Sequence record: PQ351811
Source of the DNA: Shigella phage SSG23
Strand: one strand, 5' to 3'
DNA: 64,000 nt
Of the stretch, positions 45,109-53,692 are shown piece by piece; the first letter of the stretch is position 1, and the number at the start of each line of letters is the position of its first letter. Position numbers and translations under genes: made by a program. The notes under the pieces were generated by a model, which made no database searches, had not been told where the DNA came from, and saw only the letters and a list, made by a program, of their open reading frames with translations.

Positions 45109-45377
45109 TGAAAATAACCATTATTCAATTATGGTCGGCTACCAGTGAAAACTACGCAGTAGCCGTAGATTATTACGGTTTACAATATCTCTATGATGAA
45201 GCGAGCGCATCATGGCTTCCGGTGCAAGAAAATAGCGATATCTCAAGACCTGCTACTGTATTCGATCCGGGCGTTGTCTTTATCAATATTGACGAGACAG
45301 TAGCAAAACTGCGTAAGAAAGCAATCAATAAGAAAAAGGTGATGTGGGATGAAAGAATATTTGAAACTATTGCGTGA
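45108..45377 (+). CDS. hypothetical protein
   Basis: 89-aa ORF; 3' end overlaps td start. Confidence 0.35.
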   Translation: MKITIIQLWSATSENYAVAVDYYGLQYLYDEASASWLPVQENSDISRPATVFDPGVVFINIDETVAKLRKKAINKKKVMWDERIFETIA

Positions 45378-46581
45378 TGTTCTTGATAATGGCTGGCCTC
45401 GTGAAGACCGAACGGGGGTAGGTACGCTCTCTAAATTCGGCGCAGAGATGCGAATTGACTTAAGCAAGGGTTTCCCCTTACTGACAACTAAAAAGATGGC
45501 TACAGCCTCTGTAATTGGCGAGTTGCTATGGTTTATGGAAGGGTCGCTGGACCGCCGTCGCTTACAGGAAATTACACGCGGTAAATTCGATGACGAAGCC
45601 TTTGATATTTGGCGCGGTAACTGTCTTGATATGAAAGAAAAGAATCCTTTGCGATTCAACGGCTATAATGTTGGCAATATGTATGGTATGGCGTGGCGAC
45701 GCAAGCCGATTCATCCACACGGTGAAATCAAAATTAAGCGCGTTAAGAGCAAATATACACATACATTTAAGCACCCGTGGGTAGAAGACTTTACGCCAAC
45801 CAACGACACAGAAGACCGTTTATGTGCTATCTGGCGTGGTATGCGTTATGAAGAGTTTGATTCTGAATATAATCAATTCTTAGTAGCAGACCACTGGAAG
45901 ACTCAATCCAATTTTGTTAATGATGCATACTGCTTGTGGGGATTCCAGGAATGGGTAGATGATGGTTATTTCGGTTATCTGCTTGATAGTGATTATCTGG
46001 GTGGGGATATGTTCGCACCGGATACCACAATCTTTGTTAATATGGACGTAGACACATCAAGCCCTAAAGACGATGAAGAATATATCTATCGCCCGAAGAT
46101 TTGGGAAGACCAGTTACAAAACGTGATTGAACAAATTAAAAATAATCCAACGGATCGCCGGATCATTATTGACTCATGGAACGTACAAGGAACACATAAT
46201 GCTGTATTAGGTGTATGTCATCCTTTCGTGCAATTCTACGTCAATGAAGGTAAACTGTCCTGTATGTGGTTTCAGCGAAGCGTAGACAGCTTTTTGGGCT
46301 TGCCCTTTAACGTCGCCAGCTATGCGCTGTTAACTCACATCATAGCGAAAATGTGCGACCTTGAGGTTGGCGAACTGATTTTCTCCGGCGGAGATACTCA
46401 CATTTACAAAAACCACTTTGACCAAGTTATGGAGCAATTAAACCGTGTTCCGTTTGATAAACCAACAATTGAGTTGCCGGAATTTAAATCTTTAGATGAG
46501 GTATTGACAAAAACTCCGAAAGACTTTAAAATTCACAACTATCAAAGCCACCCGGCAATCACCGCTCAAATGGCAGTATAA
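45349..46581 (+). CDS. td: thymidylate synthase (ThyA family) with large internal insertion
   Basis: 410 aa; both ends collinear with E. coli ThyA/T4 Td (DRTGVGTLS, FPLLTTKK, catalytic VCHPFVQFY, LGLPFNVASYALL, GGDTHIY); about 125 aa inserted after YGMAWRR. Confidence 0.85.
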   Translation: MKEYLKLLRDVLDNGWPREDRTGVGTLSKFGAEMRIDLSKGFPLLTTKKMATASVIGELLWFMEGSLDRRRLQEITRGKFDDEAFDIWRGNCLDMKEKNPLRFNGYNVGNMYGMAWRRKPIHPHGEIKIKRVKSKYTHTFKHPWVEDFTPTNDTEDRLCAIWRGMRYEEFDSEYNQFLVADHWKTQSNFVNDAYCLWGFQEWVDDGYFGYLLDSDYLGGDMFAPDTTIFVNMDVDTSSPKDDEEYIYRPKIWEDQLQNVIEQIKNNPTDRRIIIDSWNVQGTHNAVLGVCHPFVQFYVNEGKLSCMWFQRSVDSFLGLPFNVASYALLTHIIAKMCDLEVGELIFSGGDTHIYKNHFDQVMEQLNRVPFDKPTIELPEFKSLDEVLTKTPKDFKIHNYQSHPAITAQMAV

Positions 46582-46617: not shown

Positions 46618-46920
46618 ATGAAAATATGCCGCGTTGTAAACAAGTACAATAGCGATTTTGATGTTAATATTCAGCGTGGTACTATGTGGGGAAATCCATA
46701 CACCGCCAAAGAATACGGACGAGAGAAAGCTATTGCATTATACAAAGAGTGGTTGTATAATAAGATTCGAAATGGTGAGATAACACGAGCGCATTTAGAA
46801 GTATTAAGACATATGCGCTTAGGTTGTACTTGCTACCCTAAGAAATGCCACGGTGAAGTATTGGCGGATCTCGTTAATAGAGTTTTCGGCGATACTCCAG
46901 AAAATACGCTTGATATATGA
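46618..46920 (+). CDS. DUF4326-family protein with gp33-like C-terminal tail
   Basis: 100 aa; GNPYT and LGCTCYPKKCHGEVL fit DUF4326 pattern as recalled; C-terminus DTPENTLDI closely matches gp33 C-terminus DEPTNTLDI. Confidence 0.5.
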   Translation: MKICRVVNKYNSDFDVNIQRGTMWGNPYTAKEYGREKAIALYKEWLYNKIRNGEITRAHLEVLRHMRLGCTCYPKKCHGEVLADLVNRVFGDTPENTLDI

Positions 46921-46931
46921 AGTGAGGTAAT

Positions 46932-49175
46932 ATGATTAAAAATGTTGTTAAGTCTTCCGGTCTGACTGTTCCGTTTGAAAAAGAAAAAGTAATGAAAATT
47001 CTGGAAGCGGCAGCCGAAGGTCATAACGTTGATCCATATGAATTGTTTGATATGGTTGAACCGCTTCTGACAGAAGGTATGTCTACCAACGATATCCAGA
47101 AAGTATTGATTAAGGTCGCCGCAGATAACATTACTGTAGAAACACCTGATTATCAATATGTAGCAAGTAACCTTGCAATGTTCGCGCTTCGTAAATCAGT
47201 ATATGGTCAATTCCAACCGATTGATTTTTACAGCCATATTGAGCGTAATATTGCAACCGGAAAATATGATCGCGAAATTCTGCAAAAGTATTCCCGTGAA
47301 GAAGTGGAATATCTGGAGAAATTCATCGATCATAAACTTGATTTTAAAATGACCTATGCTGGTGCGATGCAGTTAAAAGAGAAATATCTTGTTCAGGATC
47401 GCAGCACTAAGAAAATCATTGAAACACCGCAATTTGCGTATATGCTGATCGGTATGTGCTTACATCAAGAAGAGACAGAAAATCGACTTGAACATGTGAT
47501 TGATTTTTATAATGCTGTTGCGAATAAGCAAATTTCTCTGCCTACTCCGATTATGGCGGGTGTGCGTACCCCGACACGACAATTTAGTTCGTGTGTGGTG
47601 ATTGAAAGTGATGACTCATTGCAGGGCATCAATGAAACAGCAAATGCAATCATCAAGTATATTAGTAAGCGTGCTGGTATCGGCATCAATGCTGGTATGA
47701 TTCGCGCGGAAGGATCTAAGATCGGGCATGGTGAAGTTCGTCATACTGGCGTTATCCCGTTCTGGAAACATTTTCAGACTGCCGTTAAGTCATGTTCACA
47801 AGGCGGTATTCGTGGCGGGGCAGCGACTCTCTATTACCCAATGTGGCATTTAGAGTTTGAAAGTCTTATTGTGTTGAAGAACAACAAAGGGGTAGAAGAT
47901 AACCGCATCCGTCATCTTGATTACGGCGTACAGATTAATAACCTGATGGTAGAGCGATTCCTTAAACGCGATTACATTACTCTGTTTAGTCCAGATGTTG
48001 CGGGTGGCTTGTTGTGGGATCTGTACTTCCGAGATGAGGAAGGATTCCGCCAGCTTTACGAAAAACTGGAAAAAGATCCGAGTGTGCGTAAAACTCGTGT
48101 TAAAGCCGAAGACCTGTTTTTAGCGGTGGCAATTGAACGTTTTAACACTGGTCGAATCTATCCAGCGTTCACAGACAACATGAACAATCACGGGGCGTTT
48201 ATTCGTAATGTAGCACCGATTAAACAATCTAACCTGTGTTGTGAAATTGCTCTGCCGACAAAACCGATGGGTCGTGATGATTCAGAGATCAGCCTATGCA
48301 CTTTGGCAGCATATGTTTTAGGTAATTTCGATATCGAAAACATGGAAGAAGTAGAACGCATTGCTATGGTTATGGTGCGTGCGCTTGACAACTTGTTAGA
48401 TTATCAGGATTATCCTGTAAAACAAGCACTGACAGCCAAAAAACGTCGCTCTCTGGGTGTTGGCGTGACTAACTTTGCATCATATCTGGCGGATAATTTC
48501 TTCACATATGAAGACGCTAACGAGTTTACGCATAAAACGTTTGAACGCTTGCAATATGCTCTGATTAAGGCTAGTGTGCAACTGGCTAAAGAGAAGGGTG
48601 CTTGCGAACTGATGCACGAAACACGTTATGGTCGCGGTGAACTTCCTATTGACTGGTACAAAAAGACAGTAGATGAACTGGTTGATCCGGTGTATGAGAT
48701 GGATTGGGAAGAACTGCGCGAAGACCTGAAAAAATATGGCATTCGTAACAGTACGCTTTCGGCGCTGATGCCTTGTGAGTCGTCTTCTCAGGTGTCTAAC
48801 AGCACAAACGGTATTGAACCGCCTCGCGGGATTGTATCGGTTAAAGGATCAAAGGAAGGACAATTTAATCAGGTTATTCCGAACGTAGAGAATAATGCTG
48901 ATGTTATTGACCTGCTTTGGACACTGATCAAGAAAGGTAACAAGCCTTATCTGACACTGGCAGCGATCATGCAGAAGTTTGTAGATCAGGCGATTAGTTC
49001 CAATACATCCTACGATCCAAGCACTTATAAGACTGGTAAAGTCGATATTGCTGATGTATTAGATGATATGTTGTTTGCTCAATATTACGGCCTCAAGACA
49101 CTGTATTACGCTAACGTGCGTGATGGTGCTGATGGTACGGAAGACGCTAGCGAATGTTCATCTTGCAAACTGTAA
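46932..49175 (+). CDS. nrdA: ribonucleotide reductase large subunit NrdA (class Ia)
   Basis: 747 aa; N-terminal ATP-cone, active-site region NLCCEI, C-terminal CxxC tail (CSSCKL). Confidence 0.9.
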   Translation: MIKNVVKSSGLTVPFEKEKVMKILEAAAEGHNVDPYELFDMVEPLLTEGMSTNDIQKVLIKVAADNITVETPDYQYVASNLAMFALRKSVYGQFQPIDFYSHIERNIATGKYDREILQKYSREEVEYLEKFIDHKLDFKMTYAGAMQLKEKYLVQDRSTKKIIETPQFAYMLIGMCLHQEETENRLEHVIDFYNAVANKQISLPTPIMAGVRTPTRQFSSCVVIESDDSLQGINETANAIIKYISKRAGIGINAGMIRAEGSKIGHGEVRHTGVIPFWKHFQTAVKSCSQGGIRGGAATLYYPMWHLEFESLIVLKNNKGVEDNRIRHLDYGVQINNLMVERFLKRDYITLFSPDVAGGLLWDLYFRDEEGFRQLYEKLEKDPSVRKTRVKAEDLFLAVAIERFNTGRIYPAFTDNMNNHGAFIRNVAPIKQSNLCCEIALPTKPMGRDDSEISLCTLAAYVLGNFDIENMEEVERIAMVMVRALDNLLDYQDYPVKQALTAKKRRSLGVGVTNFASYLADNFFTYEDANEFTHKTFERLQYALIKASVQLAKEKGACELMHETRYGRGELPIDWYKKTVDELVDPVYEMDWEELREDLKKYGIRNSTLSALMPCESSSQVSNSTNGIEPPRGIVSVKGSKEGQFNQVIPNVENNADVIDLLWTLIKKGNKPYLTLAAIMQKFVDQAISSNTSYDPSTYKTGKVDIADVLDDMLFAQYYGLKTLYYANVRDGADGTEDASECSSCKL

Positions 49176-49183
49176 AATAAGTG

Positions 49184-49212
49184 TTGACGCGGGGAGAAAT
49201 CCCCGCTATAAT
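49184..49212 (+). promoter_or_regulatory. PeSL-type promoter TTGACG-[GCGGGGAgaaaTCCCCGC]-TATAAT
   Basis: Palindromic 17-bp spacer 49189-49206. Confidence 0.6.
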
Positions 49213-49243: not shown

Positions 49244-49411
49244 ATGACCAAATTAAAATGTGTTGCTGTAGATTTTGAGCTAGCTGATAGCTTTGTTGTC
49301 GGTGATGAATATGATGCTCGACATGATGGGACTTGCTACTACGTTAAGGATGAATACGGCGTAGAATGGGCTATTCTTCCTGATGATAAATGTTTTGAGG
49401 TTGTCGGATAA
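49244..49411 (+). CDS. hypothetical protein
   Basis: 55-aa ORF from RBS-proximal ATG. Confidence 0.3.
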   Translation: MTKLKCVAVDFELADSFVVGDEYDARHDGTCYYVKDEYGVEWAILPDDKCFEVVG

Positions 49412-49584
49412 TGGCTACTGTATGGTTATTGATTGCAATAAGCAATTCAATGTATAATTACGGAAATATGTCAAGCATTGAATTTGCCACAAAGCAGGAT
49501 TGCGTTAAAGCTCGCGAGATTATCCGCGAAGACAATAAACGCTTTATGAATCTGTATTGCATTGAAAAGCAGAAGGTGAACTAA
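49411..49584 (+). CDS. 57-aa micro-protein (tandem paralog A)
   Basis: MATVWLLIAISNSMYNYGNMSSIEFATKQDC...; start overlaps upstream stop (TAATG); below ORF-track cutoff. Confidence 0.35.
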   Translation: MATVWLLIAISNSMYNYGNMSSIEFATKQDCVKAREIIREDNKRFMNLYCIEKQKVN

Positions 49585-49751
49585 TGGCTACATTATGGTT
49601 ATTGCTTTCCGTTAGTGTCGGCGTATATAATAAAGGAACTGTTACCAGCGTAGAGTTTTCATCACATCAAAGTTGTTTTGAAGCCATGCAGGAATTGCAA
49701 CAGGATAGCGAAATAAACAGAAATACTAAGTTCTTTTGTGTTAAAAAGTGA
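49584..49751 (+). CDS. 55-aa micro-protein (tandem paralog B)
   Basis: MATLWLLLSVSVGVYNKGTVTSVEFSSHQSC...; start overlaps stop of paralog A. Confidence 0.35.
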   Translation: MATLWLLLSVSVGVYNKGTVTSVEFSSHQSCFEAMQELQQDSEINRNTKFFCVKK

Positions 49752-49820
49752 TAGTGAGGTGAATTAATCCTTCTTCTGGATACCTGATAAATAATGGTAT
49801 ACAGAAAAGAGGATTTATTC

Positions 49821-50468
49821 ATGAACTTACAAAAACTACACGACGCAATCATAGAAAAAGCGAAGATAAGAGGAACCGTTGAAGGATATAAGGAAACACA
49901 TCATATTTTACCGCGATCTATGGGTGGCGGTGATGAAGTCGATAACCTGATTGATTTGACAGCCAAAGAACATTTTGTGATTCATCACCTGCTAGCAAAA
50001 ATTCATGGTGGACCTATGGCGCAAGCATTTGGTATGATGTGTTTGGCAAAAAATGCTAAGACCAATAAAAGAGATTATGTTGTTTCGTCTAGGGTATATG
50101 AACAAGCTAGGGTACTGATATCTGAACAAAGAAAGGGTAAGCCTATGAAAGAAGAAACGCGAAGAAAGATTAGCGAATCTTCGAAAGGTGTATTGAAATC
50201 AGAAGAGACAAAAGCTAAAATGCGTAAACCAAAAACAAAGGAGCACGCGTTAAACATTTCAAAAGCTAGAATGGGAAGTAAAAATCCTATGTTTGGGAAA
50301 CCATCGCCAACTAAAGGAATACCACATAGCGAGGAAATGAGAAAGCTGATTGCACAAAGGACAAAGGAAGCAACAATGGCAGATCCTTGTCCGCATTGCG
50401 GTAAAATTACCAATAAAGGCAATGCTCTACGATGGCACTTTGATAACTGCAAAATGAGGAATATGTGA
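49821..50468 (+). CDS. HNH homing endonuclease (MobE-like; HNH + NUMOD3 repeats + C-terminal zinc finger)
   Basis: ETHHILPRSMGGGDEVDNLIDLTAKEHFVIH; repeated basic K-rich motifs; CPHCGK; inserted between nrdA and nrdB like T4 mobE. Confidence 0.75.
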   Translation: MNLQKLHDAIIEKAKIRGTVEGYKETHHILPRSMGGGDEVDNLIDLTAKEHFVIHHLLAKIHGGPMAQAFGMMCLAKNAKTNKRDYVVSSRVYEQARVLISEQRKGKPMKEETRRKISESSKGVLKSEETKAKMRKPKTKEHALNISKARMGSKNPMFGKPSPTKGIPHSEEMRKLIAQRTKEATMADPCPHCGKITNKGNALRWHFDNCKMRNM

Positions 50469-51635
50469 ATGGGAAATACGGTATTTAATCGTGAACATGT
50501 TGATATTATGAATGAACCGATGTTTCTGGGTAGCGGTTTAGGTATCGCTCGTTATGACATTCAGCGTCATCAAGTATTTGAAGAACTAATTGAAAAATCT
50601 CTGTCATTTTTCTGGCGTCCAGAAGAGATTTCACTTGCAACTGACCGCATTCAATATCTGAATATGGGCGATGTTGAAAAACGTTTCTTTACAGAAAACT
50701 TGAAGTATCAGACATTACTTGATTCTATTCAAGGTCGCGCACCATCCGCAGCATTTGGTCCAATTGTATCTGATCCGACTCTCGATACATGGTTGCAAAC
50801 ATGGACATTCAGCGAGACAATTCATAGCCGCAGTTATACTCACATTATGCGTAACTGTTTCATTGATCCGGCTAGTGAGTTTGACCAGATCATCGATAAC
50901 CCTGCTATCATGAAGCGAGCGGAATCTATCGGGCAATATTATGATGATGTTCTTTATTGGATTCGTAAGTATGAGAATGCAAAAGAAGATCTCCGCTATT
51001 GGGAAGAACGAGACGACCAGACAGCATTAGATGATGCAAGAAGAGTTTTTGAAGATACAAAACGAGATCTGATGGCGTCGATTTATCTGTGTGCACACTG
51101 CGTTAATGCACTGGAAGCAATCCGTTTTTATGTATCCTTTGCATGTACTTTCAGCTTTGCCGAACGTGGTTTACTGGAAGGTAACGCGAAGATCATGAAA
51201 TTTATTGCGCGTGATGAACAACTTCACTTAAAAGGTACACAATACATTATTCGTCAATGGCAAACGGGGGCTGACGGTGATGAGTGGAAACAGATTGCGG
51301 AAGAACTTGAAGACGAAGCAACGAAAATCTTTCTGGATGTTGTCGAGCAAGAAAAAGAATGGGTAGACCACCTATTCGCAATGGGGGCAATTCCTAACCT
51401 GTCACCGGAAATTCTGAAAACCTATGTAGAATACCTGGCAGATTCCCGTATGCGTGCTGCCGGACTGAAAAGCCCGTTTAGTGTTCGTCGTCATCCTTTA
51501 CCGTGGATGCGTAAGTGGTTAAACTCTGACGAAGTTCAAAACGCGGCGCAAGAAGTAGAGATCATGTATCTGGTATCTCAGGTTAATACCGATTTAACAG
51601 ACGACGACTACAACCGATTCGGGAAATATCTATGA
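50469..51635 (+). CDS. nrdB: ribonucleotide reductase small subunit NrdB
   Basis: 388 aa; VDIMNEPMFLGSGLGIARYDIQRHQVFEEL matches T4 NrdB N-terminus; uninterrupted (no intron). Confidence 0.9.
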   Translation: MGNTVFNREHVDIMNEPMFLGSGLGIARYDIQRHQVFEELIEKSLSFFWRPEEISLATDRIQYLNMGDVEKRFFTENLKYQTLLDSIQGRAPSAAFGPIVSDPTLDTWLQTWTFSETIHSRSYTHIMRNCFIDPASEFDQIIDNPAIMKRAESIGQYYDDVLYWIRKYENAKEDLRYWEERDDQTALDDARRVFEDTKRDLMASIYLCAHCVNALEAIRFYVSFACTFSFAERGLLEGNAKIMKFIARDEQLHLKGTQYIIRQWQTGADGDEWKQIAEELEDEATKIFLDVVEQEKEWVDHLFAMGAIPNLSPEILKTYVEYLADSRMRAAGLKSPFSVRRHPLPWMRKWLNSDEVQNAAQEVEIMYLVSQVNTDLTDDDYNRFGKYL

Positions 51636-53230: not shown

Positions 53231-53692
53231 ATGATTAATGAGCTAATAGAAAACTATGGATTCGTTAAATATTCATGTTTAGAGTGTAAAGATGGTGATG
53301 TGATTCTACCGCCTCAGAAGAACCGTTTAAATGTTCTTTACGCTATTGTGGTTGATGATGAACTGGTATATATTGGTCAGACTGTTAATCTAAGAAAGCG
53401 GATCAATTATTACCGGACTAGCATTAACAGACAGACACCAACGGCGGATACTCGCAAGAGTAAGAATATTCATAAGGCGCTAGAGGAAGGGAAGACAGTA
53501 ACATTCTATTACCGCCAGTGCTTTGAGTTGTACATCGAGAATCCAACGGGTAAGGATATTATAAGCACTGCCGATATCGAAGAACCTGTTTTGATCACCA
53601 AATTTAAACCAGAATGGAACACAAATTATGTCAACAAAAGAAAACAACAAAAAAGTTTTAGCATTGTTCAAAAATCTGATGACACTATGTGA
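53231..53692 (+). CDS. denA: endonuclease II (DenA; GIY-YIG family)
   Basis: YGFVKY..., NVLYAIVVDDELVYIGQTVNLRKRINYYRTSINR, ARQCF match T4 DenA; about 17 aa longer at C-terminus. Confidence 0.85.
   Translation: MINELIENYGFVKYSCLECKDGDVILPPQKNRLNVLYAIVVDDELVYIGQTVNLRKRINYYRTSINRQTPTADTRKSKNIHKALEEGKTVTFYYRQCFELYIENPTGKDIISTADIEEPVLITKFKPEWNTNYVNKRKQQKSFSIVQKSDDTM

Follow-up and report, generated by a model that had tools for sequence, protein, structure and literature searches.

A 712-bp, probably selfish cassette with a MobE-type HNH homing endonuclease gene at the nrdB start codon of Krischvirus phages

Local gene order and start of the endonuclease gene

The window is a stretch of 64,000 nucleotides from Shigella phage SSG23 (PQ351811). 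Its segment 48800-51000 is 100% identical to Shigella phage SFHK24 (PQ351812.1; Straboviridae, Krischvirus, RB49 group), and SFHK24 is the name used for this sequence in all comparisons within Krischvirus. The local gene order, all on the plus strand, is frd, td (45349-46581), an ORF with a DUF4326 domain (46618-46920), nrdA (46932-49175), three micro-ORFs (49244-49411, 49411-49584 and 49584-49751), the endonuclease gene (49821-50468), nrdB (50469-51635) and, 3' of nrdB, a PNK-phosphatase-like gene. The endonuclease gene is an intact ORF of 215 amino acids plus stop codon, and the ATG of nrdB directly abuts this stop codon.

The start of the endonuclease gene is placed at ATG 49821, because a GAGGA ribosome-binding site (49809-49813) lies 7 nt 5' of this codon and because the homologues all start at an aligned MN(Y/L)Q that corresponds to it. 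An ORF of 224 amino acids starting at ATG 49794, as given in the GenBank records of SFHK24 and FL15, was rejected: it has no ribosome-binding site, and the homologues begin at 49821. The start codon in both records is corrected accordingly. GenBank annotation of the gene in SFHK24, JSE and other records already reads 'homing endonuclease'; no published analysis of the Krischvirus copy was found in the literature searched.

Domains and family of the encoded protein

The protein consists of three recognizable parts. The HNH catalytic motif (49887-49994, plus strand; residues 23-58) includes Y23, E25, H27, H28, N42, E50, H51 and H55. It is followed by a NUMOD3 repeat region (50229-50351, plus strand; Pfam PF07460, residues 137-177, E 2.6e-9, 37.3 bits against a cut-off of 20.4), presumed to be an extended DNA-binding linker, and by a C-terminal CCHC zinc-finger-like motif (50388-50450, plus strand; C190-P-H-C193 ... 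W-H206-F-D-N-C210). Conservation within the family was judged in alignments of 34 and 40 members. Invariant in both are Y23, E25, H27, H28, I29, P31, H51, H55 and L58 of the HNH core as well as C190, C193, H206 and C210 of the finger, the latter four also being present in T4 and T6 MobE; G36, N42 and E50 are invariant in the 34-member alignment and conserved to at least 90% in the 40-member alignment. All of these HNH and CCHC residues are intact in the window protein. An AlphaFold model, computed from an input alignment without the T4 and T6 sequences, has a mean pLDDT of 90.2.

The protein matches the phrog_655 'homing endonuclease' profile (E 1.8e-55) and aligns with T4 MobE over its full length (BLASTP, 49% identity, 232 columns, E 4e-77). 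In tblastn searches of the T6 and LZ7 records the best locus is the annotated mobE, with 50% identity (T6 MobE over its full length). An earlier note, made from the letters alone, had described the gene as a free-standing HNH/NUMOD3 endonuclease resembling MobE, and the intact HNH motif, the NUMOD3 match and the identity of 49-50% to T4 and T6 MobE bear this out. Judged at the level of sequence, the protein is a member of the MobE family by every feature that could be tested. It has the same order of domains as T4 and T6 MobE, namely HNH, NUMOD3 repeats and CCHC finger, whereas T4 MobE is longer (232 amino acids) and has one additional NUMOD3-like repeat. A comparable layout occurs in I-HmuI, an intron-encoded HNH nicking endonuclease of Bacillus phage SPO1 whose structure has been solved. 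Its architecture is likewise extended and made of two modules, an HNH nicking domain at the N-terminus and a DNA-binding part at the C-terminus (PMC2790892; established knowledge). The closest proteins outside Krischvirus are merely 53-58% identical; with this low identity, and with no nucleotide-level match beyond Krischvirus, a recent transfer from T-even phages was rejected.

Extent and junctions of the cassette

The gene is carried by a cassette of 712 bp (49769-50480, plus strand) that replaces four bases, GAGC, of the empty site at the start codon of nrdB. The junctions were taken from pairwise alignments and from an alignment of 16 genomes (SFHK24, five other endonuclease-carrying and ten endonuclease-less Krischvirus phages); an insert of 712 bp with identical junctions is found in all six carriers. 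The RB49-type empty site reads ..GGTGAATTAATGAGCGTATTTAAC, and the filled site of SFHK24 reads ..GGTGAATTAAT, then the insert from CCTTC... to GAATGGGAAATACG, then GTATTTAAT. In a longer form, the empty site is ..GAGGTGAATTAATGAGCGTATTTAAC.. and the filled site ..GAGGTGAATTAAT, followed by the insert (CCTTC...GAGGAATATGTGAATGGGAAATACG) and by GTATTTAAT.. on the nrdB side. The empty site ..AATTAATGAGCGTATTT.. is present in all 13 endonuclease-less loci that were read. Since the insert replaces just GAGC, the alignments place the insertion point at the nrdB start codon.

The cassette is composed of a 5' hairpin, the endonuclease ORF, and a replacement for the translation start of nrdB (50456-50480, plus strand), the latter consisting of a GAGGAA ribosome-binding site and the first four codons, ATG GGA AAT ACG. 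As a result, NrdB begins with MGNTVFN and has 388 amino acids in the carriers, compared to MSVFN and 386 amino acids in RB49-type phages. Because the cassette supplies both the ribosome-binding site and the first four codons of nrdB, its imprecise loss would damage nrdB expression.

Distribution and the micro-ORFs

The cassette is present in 7 of 58 Krischvirus records, which correspond to six phages (SFHK24, phiS, PTE-Eco09, JSE, AV108 and FL15). The comparison of nrdA-nrdB junctions across relatives, called for by the earlier note, thus yields exact filled and empty sites with the same junctions in every carrier, and a patchy presence rather than a gene that all relatives share at this site. 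A survey of IMG/VR with NrdB for further Krischvirus loci gave just two close loci and did not enlarge the sample. Beyond the genus, the order nrdA, homing endonuclease gene, nrdB is also found in T6, T4, Moonvirus KM16, Acinetobacter phage Minot and metagenomic contigs, including two designated L059 and L062.

The position between the nrd genes resembles that of T4 mobE, as had been proposed, on the nrdB side only. As in T4 and T6, the gene directly precedes nrdB, its stop codon touching or overlapping the nrdB start codon, and as in T4 and T6 its presence is polymorphic among close relatives. On the other side, mobE of T4 and T6 fills the entire gap, overlaps the nrdA stop codon and has no leader, whereas in Krischvirus about 590 bp of backbone with the three micro-ORFs separate nrdA from the cassette, which has a 5' leader of its own. 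A further difference from the T4/T6 system is that the Krischvirus locus has no nrdB intron or I-TevIII that could be mobilised in trans. In some T4-related phages mobE is replaced by the homing endonuclease Hef, a different gene in the same nrdA-nrdB slot (Sandegren et al. 2005, as cited in PMC2988022, PMC3653736), which suggests that free-standing endonucleases have landed in this gap repeatedly.

The proposal that the micro-ORFs and the endonuclease together form one mobile island has to be given up. All three micro-ORFs are found in the endonuclease-less phages RB49, Phi1, JK32, ECD7, Makalu_001 and Brandy, and likewise in UPWr_E1, E26, kvi, Delraymugoa, PHB13 and KFS-EC, that is, in all endonuclease-less relatives examined. 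Conversely, three carriers (JSE, AV108 and FL15) have a deletion of 340 bp (49414-49753) that removes two paralogous micro-ORFs, both assigned to phrog_5579. From this comparison, the three micro-ORFs are resident backbone and not cargo. The nrdA-nrdB spacer is prone to indels also elsewhere in the genus: Delraymugoa and Aragogtheria have an insert of 895 bp with a DNA methyltransferase just past nrdA.

Selection on the endonuclease

The six alleles of the cassette differ at 13-25 of 712 positions, and nearly all differences are synonymous. For the endonuclease, Nei-Gojobori pN/pS ranges from 0.01 to 0.19, and pS reaches 0.18 (six alleles). Because six allelic copies give such ratios, the ORF 49821-50468 is confirmed as a real gene, far beyond chance; it is under strong purifying selection, without sign of decay.

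The same data bear on a reading in which the endonuclease is retained and no longer mobile. The present distribution would then result from one old insertion, vertical descent, ordinary recombination and several losses, and the cassette would be kept for the ribosome-binding site and start of nrdB, possibly also for an internal promoter. The identical junctions in six copies indicate a single original insertion, the allele divergence shows that the cassette is old within the genus, the translation start of nrdB is carried by the cassette, and a promoter-like site (50193-50221) lies inside the ORF. However, the entire protein, with every catalytic and zinc-binding residue, is under purifying selection, which a role as mere spacer or as donor of a ribosome-binding site would not require. 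Together with the evidence from flanking DNA given below, this makes a cassette that has ceased to move quite unlikely.

Mosaic flanks and a candidate co-conversion tract

The flanks of SFHK24 are most similar to those of the endonuclease-less phages JK32 (98.3%), Makalu (97.8%) and ECD7 (97.5%), compared to 96.0-96.6% for the other carriers. In a matrix of variable sites, the left flanks of the carriers fall into at least three haplotypes, each common to different endonuclease-less phages: one unites SFHK24 with JK32 and Makalu, another phiS with E26, and a third PTE-Eco09 with RB49 and kvi. Judged by their flanks, the carriers are therefore not most closely related to one another, which argues against a cassette that has merely been inherited. 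We note that T4-like phages recombine freely, and mosaic flanks alone thus do not prove endonuclease-driven conversion; general recombination among these phages is an alternative source.

A more local pattern is seen in nrdB itself. The endonuclease-less phage JK32 is otherwise roughly 99% identical to SFHK24 at the locus, and the two differ essentially by the insert and by ten synonymous SNPs in 50489-50556; they are near-identical again from approximately 50585. These SNPs fall within 76 bp next to the cassette (50481-50556, plus strand), a stretch of nrdB that is linked to the endonuclease gene and represents a candidate co-conversion tract. In outline, the block looks like a conversion tract that extends from the predicted cut site (see below) to the cassette. 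Such a sharp block of donor-type SNPs in a JK32-like background is a further point against the non-mobile alternative. The direction of transfer could be either way: JK32-type genomes could instead have lost the endonuclease gene or could be 'immunised' products of a short conversion tract. The positions 50489, 50492, 50513, 50534 and 50552 separate all six carriers from the first ten endonuclease-less loci; the first three of them were downgraded as diagnostic for the endonuclease gene, since PHB13, an endonuclease-less phage that is a patchwork of both nrdB haplotypes, carries all three in mosaic.

Predicted target and carrier allele in nrdB

A nick that depends on T4 MobE was mapped in T2 nrdB at nt 122-126 (Wilson & Edgell 2009, PMC2790892), in a region of sequence polymorphism (nt 114-131) that immediately precedes the conserved codons for FFWRPEE. 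For T4 MobE, a bipartite recognition with binding of the FFWRPEE-coding part was proposed, such that the polymorphisms protect the carrier genome; cleavage by T4 MobE was never reproduced in vitro, and the authors left indirect action open (PMC2790892).

The 5' end of nrdB can be aligned codon for codon between T-even phages and Krischvirus. From the alignment with T2, T4 and T6, the predicted target or immunity site is located at 50586-50627 (plus strand). It comprises the position equivalent to the T2 nick (50593-50597, approximately 125 nt into nrdB) and, 3' of it, the FFWRPEE codons (50607-50627). The site reads GAA AAG CAG TTG TCA TTT TTC TGG in T2 and GAA AAG CAA TTG TCA TTT TTC TGG in most endonuclease-less Krischvirus phages. 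In the presence of the endonuclease gene it reads GAA AAA TCT CTG TCA TTT TTC TGG (all six Krischvirus carriers) or GAG AAA TCT TTA TCA TTT TTT TGG (T6). The sensitive-type allele GAAAAGCAATTG of most endonuclease-less relatives is one base away from the T2 nick site; correspondingly, the endonuclease-less Krischvirus sequence homologous to the T2 nick region, GAAAAGCAATTGTCATTTTTCTGG, differs from T2 by 1 nt. All endonuclease-carrying Krischvirus phages have GAAAAATCTCTG at the predicted target site. The likeness to the T-even system hence extends to the target: the T2 nick-site sequence is kept in endonuclease-less Krischvirus phages, and the carriers have AAA-TCT (Lys-Ser) in common with the mobE-carrying T6, in place of AAG-CAR (Lys-Gln), resulting in a change from Gln to Ser.

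With the allele read directly in 19 loci and inferred from identity class in the remaining records, the 58 records split into 7 with endonuclease gene and AAATCT, 9 without the gene and with AAATCT, and approximately 42 without the gene and with the T2-like allele. The nine exceptional records are JK32, Makalu_001, Makalu_002, Makalu_003, LF73P4, ELT3, KFS-EC (two records) and PHB13. The association of AAATCT with the endonuclease gene is therefore strong but not exclusive (7 of 7 records with, 9 of 51 without the gene). Endonuclease-less genomes with the carrier-type allele could be products of loss, which would fit a cassette no longer mobile; alternatively, short conversion tracts may have left these genomes (JK32, the Makalu phages, KFS-EC, PHB13, LF73P4 and ELT3) naturally 'immunised'.

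Leader, hairpin and promoter-like elements

Upstream of the endonuclease gene, an RNA hairpin is predicted (49759-49822, plus strand) that pairs the GAGGA (49809-49813) and the first two bases of the endonuclease AUG. Its outer 5' arm (49759-49768, 10 nt) is backbone sequence, and the remainder belongs to the 52-nt leader of the cassette. The fold of 49752-49900 has a free energy of -31 kcal/mol (z = -4.0), and none of 200 shuffled sequences was equally stable. The predicted hairpin is kept in all six alleles, with T>A at 49816 (JSE and PTE-Eco09) closing one internal mismatch; the leader is nearly invariant within Krischvirus, leaving no covariation to check the hairpin. The metagenomic relatives L059 and L062, whose proteins are 53-55% identical, also have hairpins that bury the ribosome-binding site, built from other arm sequences.

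The loop of the hairpin contains a late-promoter-like element, GATAAATA (49786-49793, plus strand), which matches the T4-type late promoter TATAAATA at 7 of 8 positions; the homologous loops of L059 and L062 contain a perfect TATAAATA. Transcripts that start just 3' of GATAAATA would lack the 5' arm of the hairpin and would expose the ribosome-binding site. Farther upstream, just past nrdA, a consensus scan detects a sigma-70-like promoter (49184-49212, plus strand; TTGACG-17-TATAAT, 11 of 12 positions), from which read-through transcripts with the complete inhibitory hairpin would probably originate.

An arrangement of this kind is known from I-TevI, I-TevII, I-TevIII, SegB and Aeh1 mobE, where a hairpin blocks translation of read-through transcripts and late transcripts start inside the hairpin (PMC2988022). 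The predicted hairpin over the ribosome-binding site, with the late-promoter-like element inside, makes these genes regulatory analogues of the Krischvirus gene, not necessarily close homologues, and the putative promoter here matches at 7 of 8 positions; Aeh1 mobE, moreover, splits nrdA rather than preceding nrdB. T4 mobE is controlled differently. It has no promoter, its translation is coupled to that of nrdA, and an intrinsic terminator lies 27 nt inside the ORF (PMC2790892), whereas the Krischvirus gene starts 646 nt downstream of the nrdA stop codon with its own ribosome-binding site, which does not correspond to T4-style coupling, and a T4-like internal terminator was looked for on the plus strand of the ORF and not found. 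The missing coupling and terminator are a regulatory difference and do not define the family.

On the minus strand, the leader contains a possible operator (49772-49792) that overlaps the late-promoter-like element. It reads ATTTATCAGGTATCCAGAAGA and matches the nrdB sequence ATTTTTCTGGCGTCCAGAAGA (50606-50626) at 17 of 21 positions. The pair is reminiscent of I-TevI, which is both endonuclease and repressor and whose operator and homing site match at 15 of 20 positions (PMC2988022). Such a match to nrdB was reached by 1 of 500 shuffled leaders, for a similarity that was spotted post hoc; in the relative L059, an operator-like match was looked for and not found. It is conceivable, though we think it unlikely, that the endonuclease represses its own gene through this leader match to the FFWRPEE-coding half of its presumed nrdB target.

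In a different view of the gene, its product is a site-specific nuclease that serves mainly in competition between phages, by damage to the nrdB of co-infecting relatives, or a regulator of the nrd operon, with conversion as a by-product. Strong conservation of the protein would fit, as would a regulatory binding site in the leader; I-TevI shows that one protein can be both endonuclease and repressor (PMC2988022), and the authors of the T4 MobE study noted a possible role in regulating another nuclease (PMC2790892). Against this view stand the post hoc nature of the operator-like match and its absence from L059, and competition and homing are not mutually exclusive, as both need the same cleavage. 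Competition or regulation as the main function is accordingly rated very unlikely.

Proposed mechanism and implications

The gene is best read as a selfish homing endonuclease gene of an ordinary kind, belonging to the T4 MobE family and located just upstream of nrdB in a minority of RB49-like phages. Most likely, the 712-bp insert at the nrdB start is a selfish cassette whose MobE-type HNH endonuclease drives nick-initiated homing in the manner of T4 MobE, and its mode of spread is most probably gene conversion aimed at nrdB, combined with translational control in the style of Aeh1 mobE and I-TevI. We infer cleavage and its position, immunity, promoter use and homing events from the comparisons described above. 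During mixed infection with an endonuclease-less Krischvirus phage, the NUMOD3 and zinc-finger half of the protein would bind the FFWRPEE-coding part of nrdB, and the HNH domain would nick or cut the recipient nrdB approximately 120 nt into the gene, between GAAAAG and CAATTG. Recombinational repair from the carrier genome would then copy the cassette, located roughly 113 bp 5' of the cut, along with the intervening part of nrdB into the recipient. The carrier genome would itself be protected by its own allele, GAAAAATCTCTG. Expression would be restrained by the 5' hairpin, which buries the ribosome-binding site on read-through transcripts, and the late-promoter-like element in the loop could yield hairpin-free late transcripts.

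The finding matters little beyond the field. Within it, the micro-ORFs are established as backbone rather than cargo, and the Krischvirus lineage of MobE is seen to occupy the niche of T4 MobE, with apparently the same target in nrdB and a different, hairpin-based control region. Autorepression, if real, would be without precedent among free-standing HNH (Mob-type) endonucleases. Target recognition and immunity of MobE are biochemically still poorly defined, and the genus provides a natural set of filled sites, empty sensitive sites and empty sites with the carrier allele (7, 42 and 9 records, respectively) that is usable for tests of both. If the endonuclease-less genomes with AAATCT are indeed 'immunised' products, the pressure exerted by the endonuclease would shape nrdB even in phages without the gene.

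Indels in the nrdA-nrdB spacer

The spacer between nrdA and nrdB is the site of three independent indels among the Krischvirus phages: a DNA methyltransferase insert, the MobE-type HNH endonuclease cassette, and a 340-bp deletion. The first, found in Delraymugoa and Aragogtheria, is an 895-bp insert that adjoins the end of nrdA and carries the methyltransferase gene directly 3' of it (positions 1932-2771 of the Delraymugoa locus, corresponding to approximately 49190 of the window). The deletion (window 49414-49753) is clean and is found in JSE, AV108 and FL15, all of which carry the endonuclease gene. It ends 15 bp from the insertion point of the endonuclease, with a junction microhomology of only about 2 bp, and takes out exactly two tandem micro-ORFs (49411-49584 and 49584-49751, encoding 57 and 55 aa). 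The two micro-ORFs are paralogues, each matching phrog_5579 with an E-value of about 1e-23. Both products begin with a hydrophobic N-terminus, MAT(V/L)WLL.., a feature that makes them possible small membrane proteins.

Flanking genes

Upstream of nrdA, the thymidylate synthase gene td (45349-46581) encodes a protein of 410 aa, compared to 286 aa in T2. The protein matches the Pfam thymidylate synthase model (266 positions) in two stretches, the best of which aligns residues 254-410 to profile positions 110-266, indicating a large mid-protein insertion of roughly 140 aa. Between td and nrdA lies a DUF4326 ORF (46618-46920, 100 aa, E = 6.5e-23), which also matches phrog_464 and, weakly, a 'NrdA-like' phrog. 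In the T2 record AP018813.1 (5785-6963 and 7015-9279 of the extracted locus), nrdB is labelled 'thymidylate synthase' and nrdA 'single stranded DNA-binding protein', which are evident annotation-transfer errors.

Within nrdB, the conserved FFWRPEE codons (50607-50627) form an inverted repeat, TTCTGG CGT CCAGAA, that was scored as terminator-like in a consensus scan. The repeat probably reflects nothing more than the codons themselves; the same stretch is also the presumed binding half-site of MobE. We note that nrdB of phiS has an in-frame 27-bp insertion at the equivalent of window position 50995, resulting in a gene of 1194 nt rather than 1167 nt.

Near the RNA ligase gene, a further ORF (53231-53692, 153 aa) shares 65 nt with the beginning of the ligase gene; the SFHK24 record labels it 'endonuclease'. 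Its match to the GIY-YIG domain is borderline (E = 1.4e-4, 22.5 bits versus a cut-off of 22.6), and the ORF may encode a second free-standing, seg-like homing endonuclease.

A promoter-like site within the endonuclease gene

The endonuclease ORF itself contains a sigma-70-like site at 50193-50221 (TTGAAA-17-TAAAAT, 10/12). Over 30 nt, its -10 element and the part downstream of it are 73% identical (direct repeat D2) to the corresponding parts of the strong predicted promoter at 49184-49212. The site could serve as a cassette-borne promoter for nrdB, in which case it would be the counterpart of the nrdB middle promoter that lies within T4 mobE (PMC2790892).
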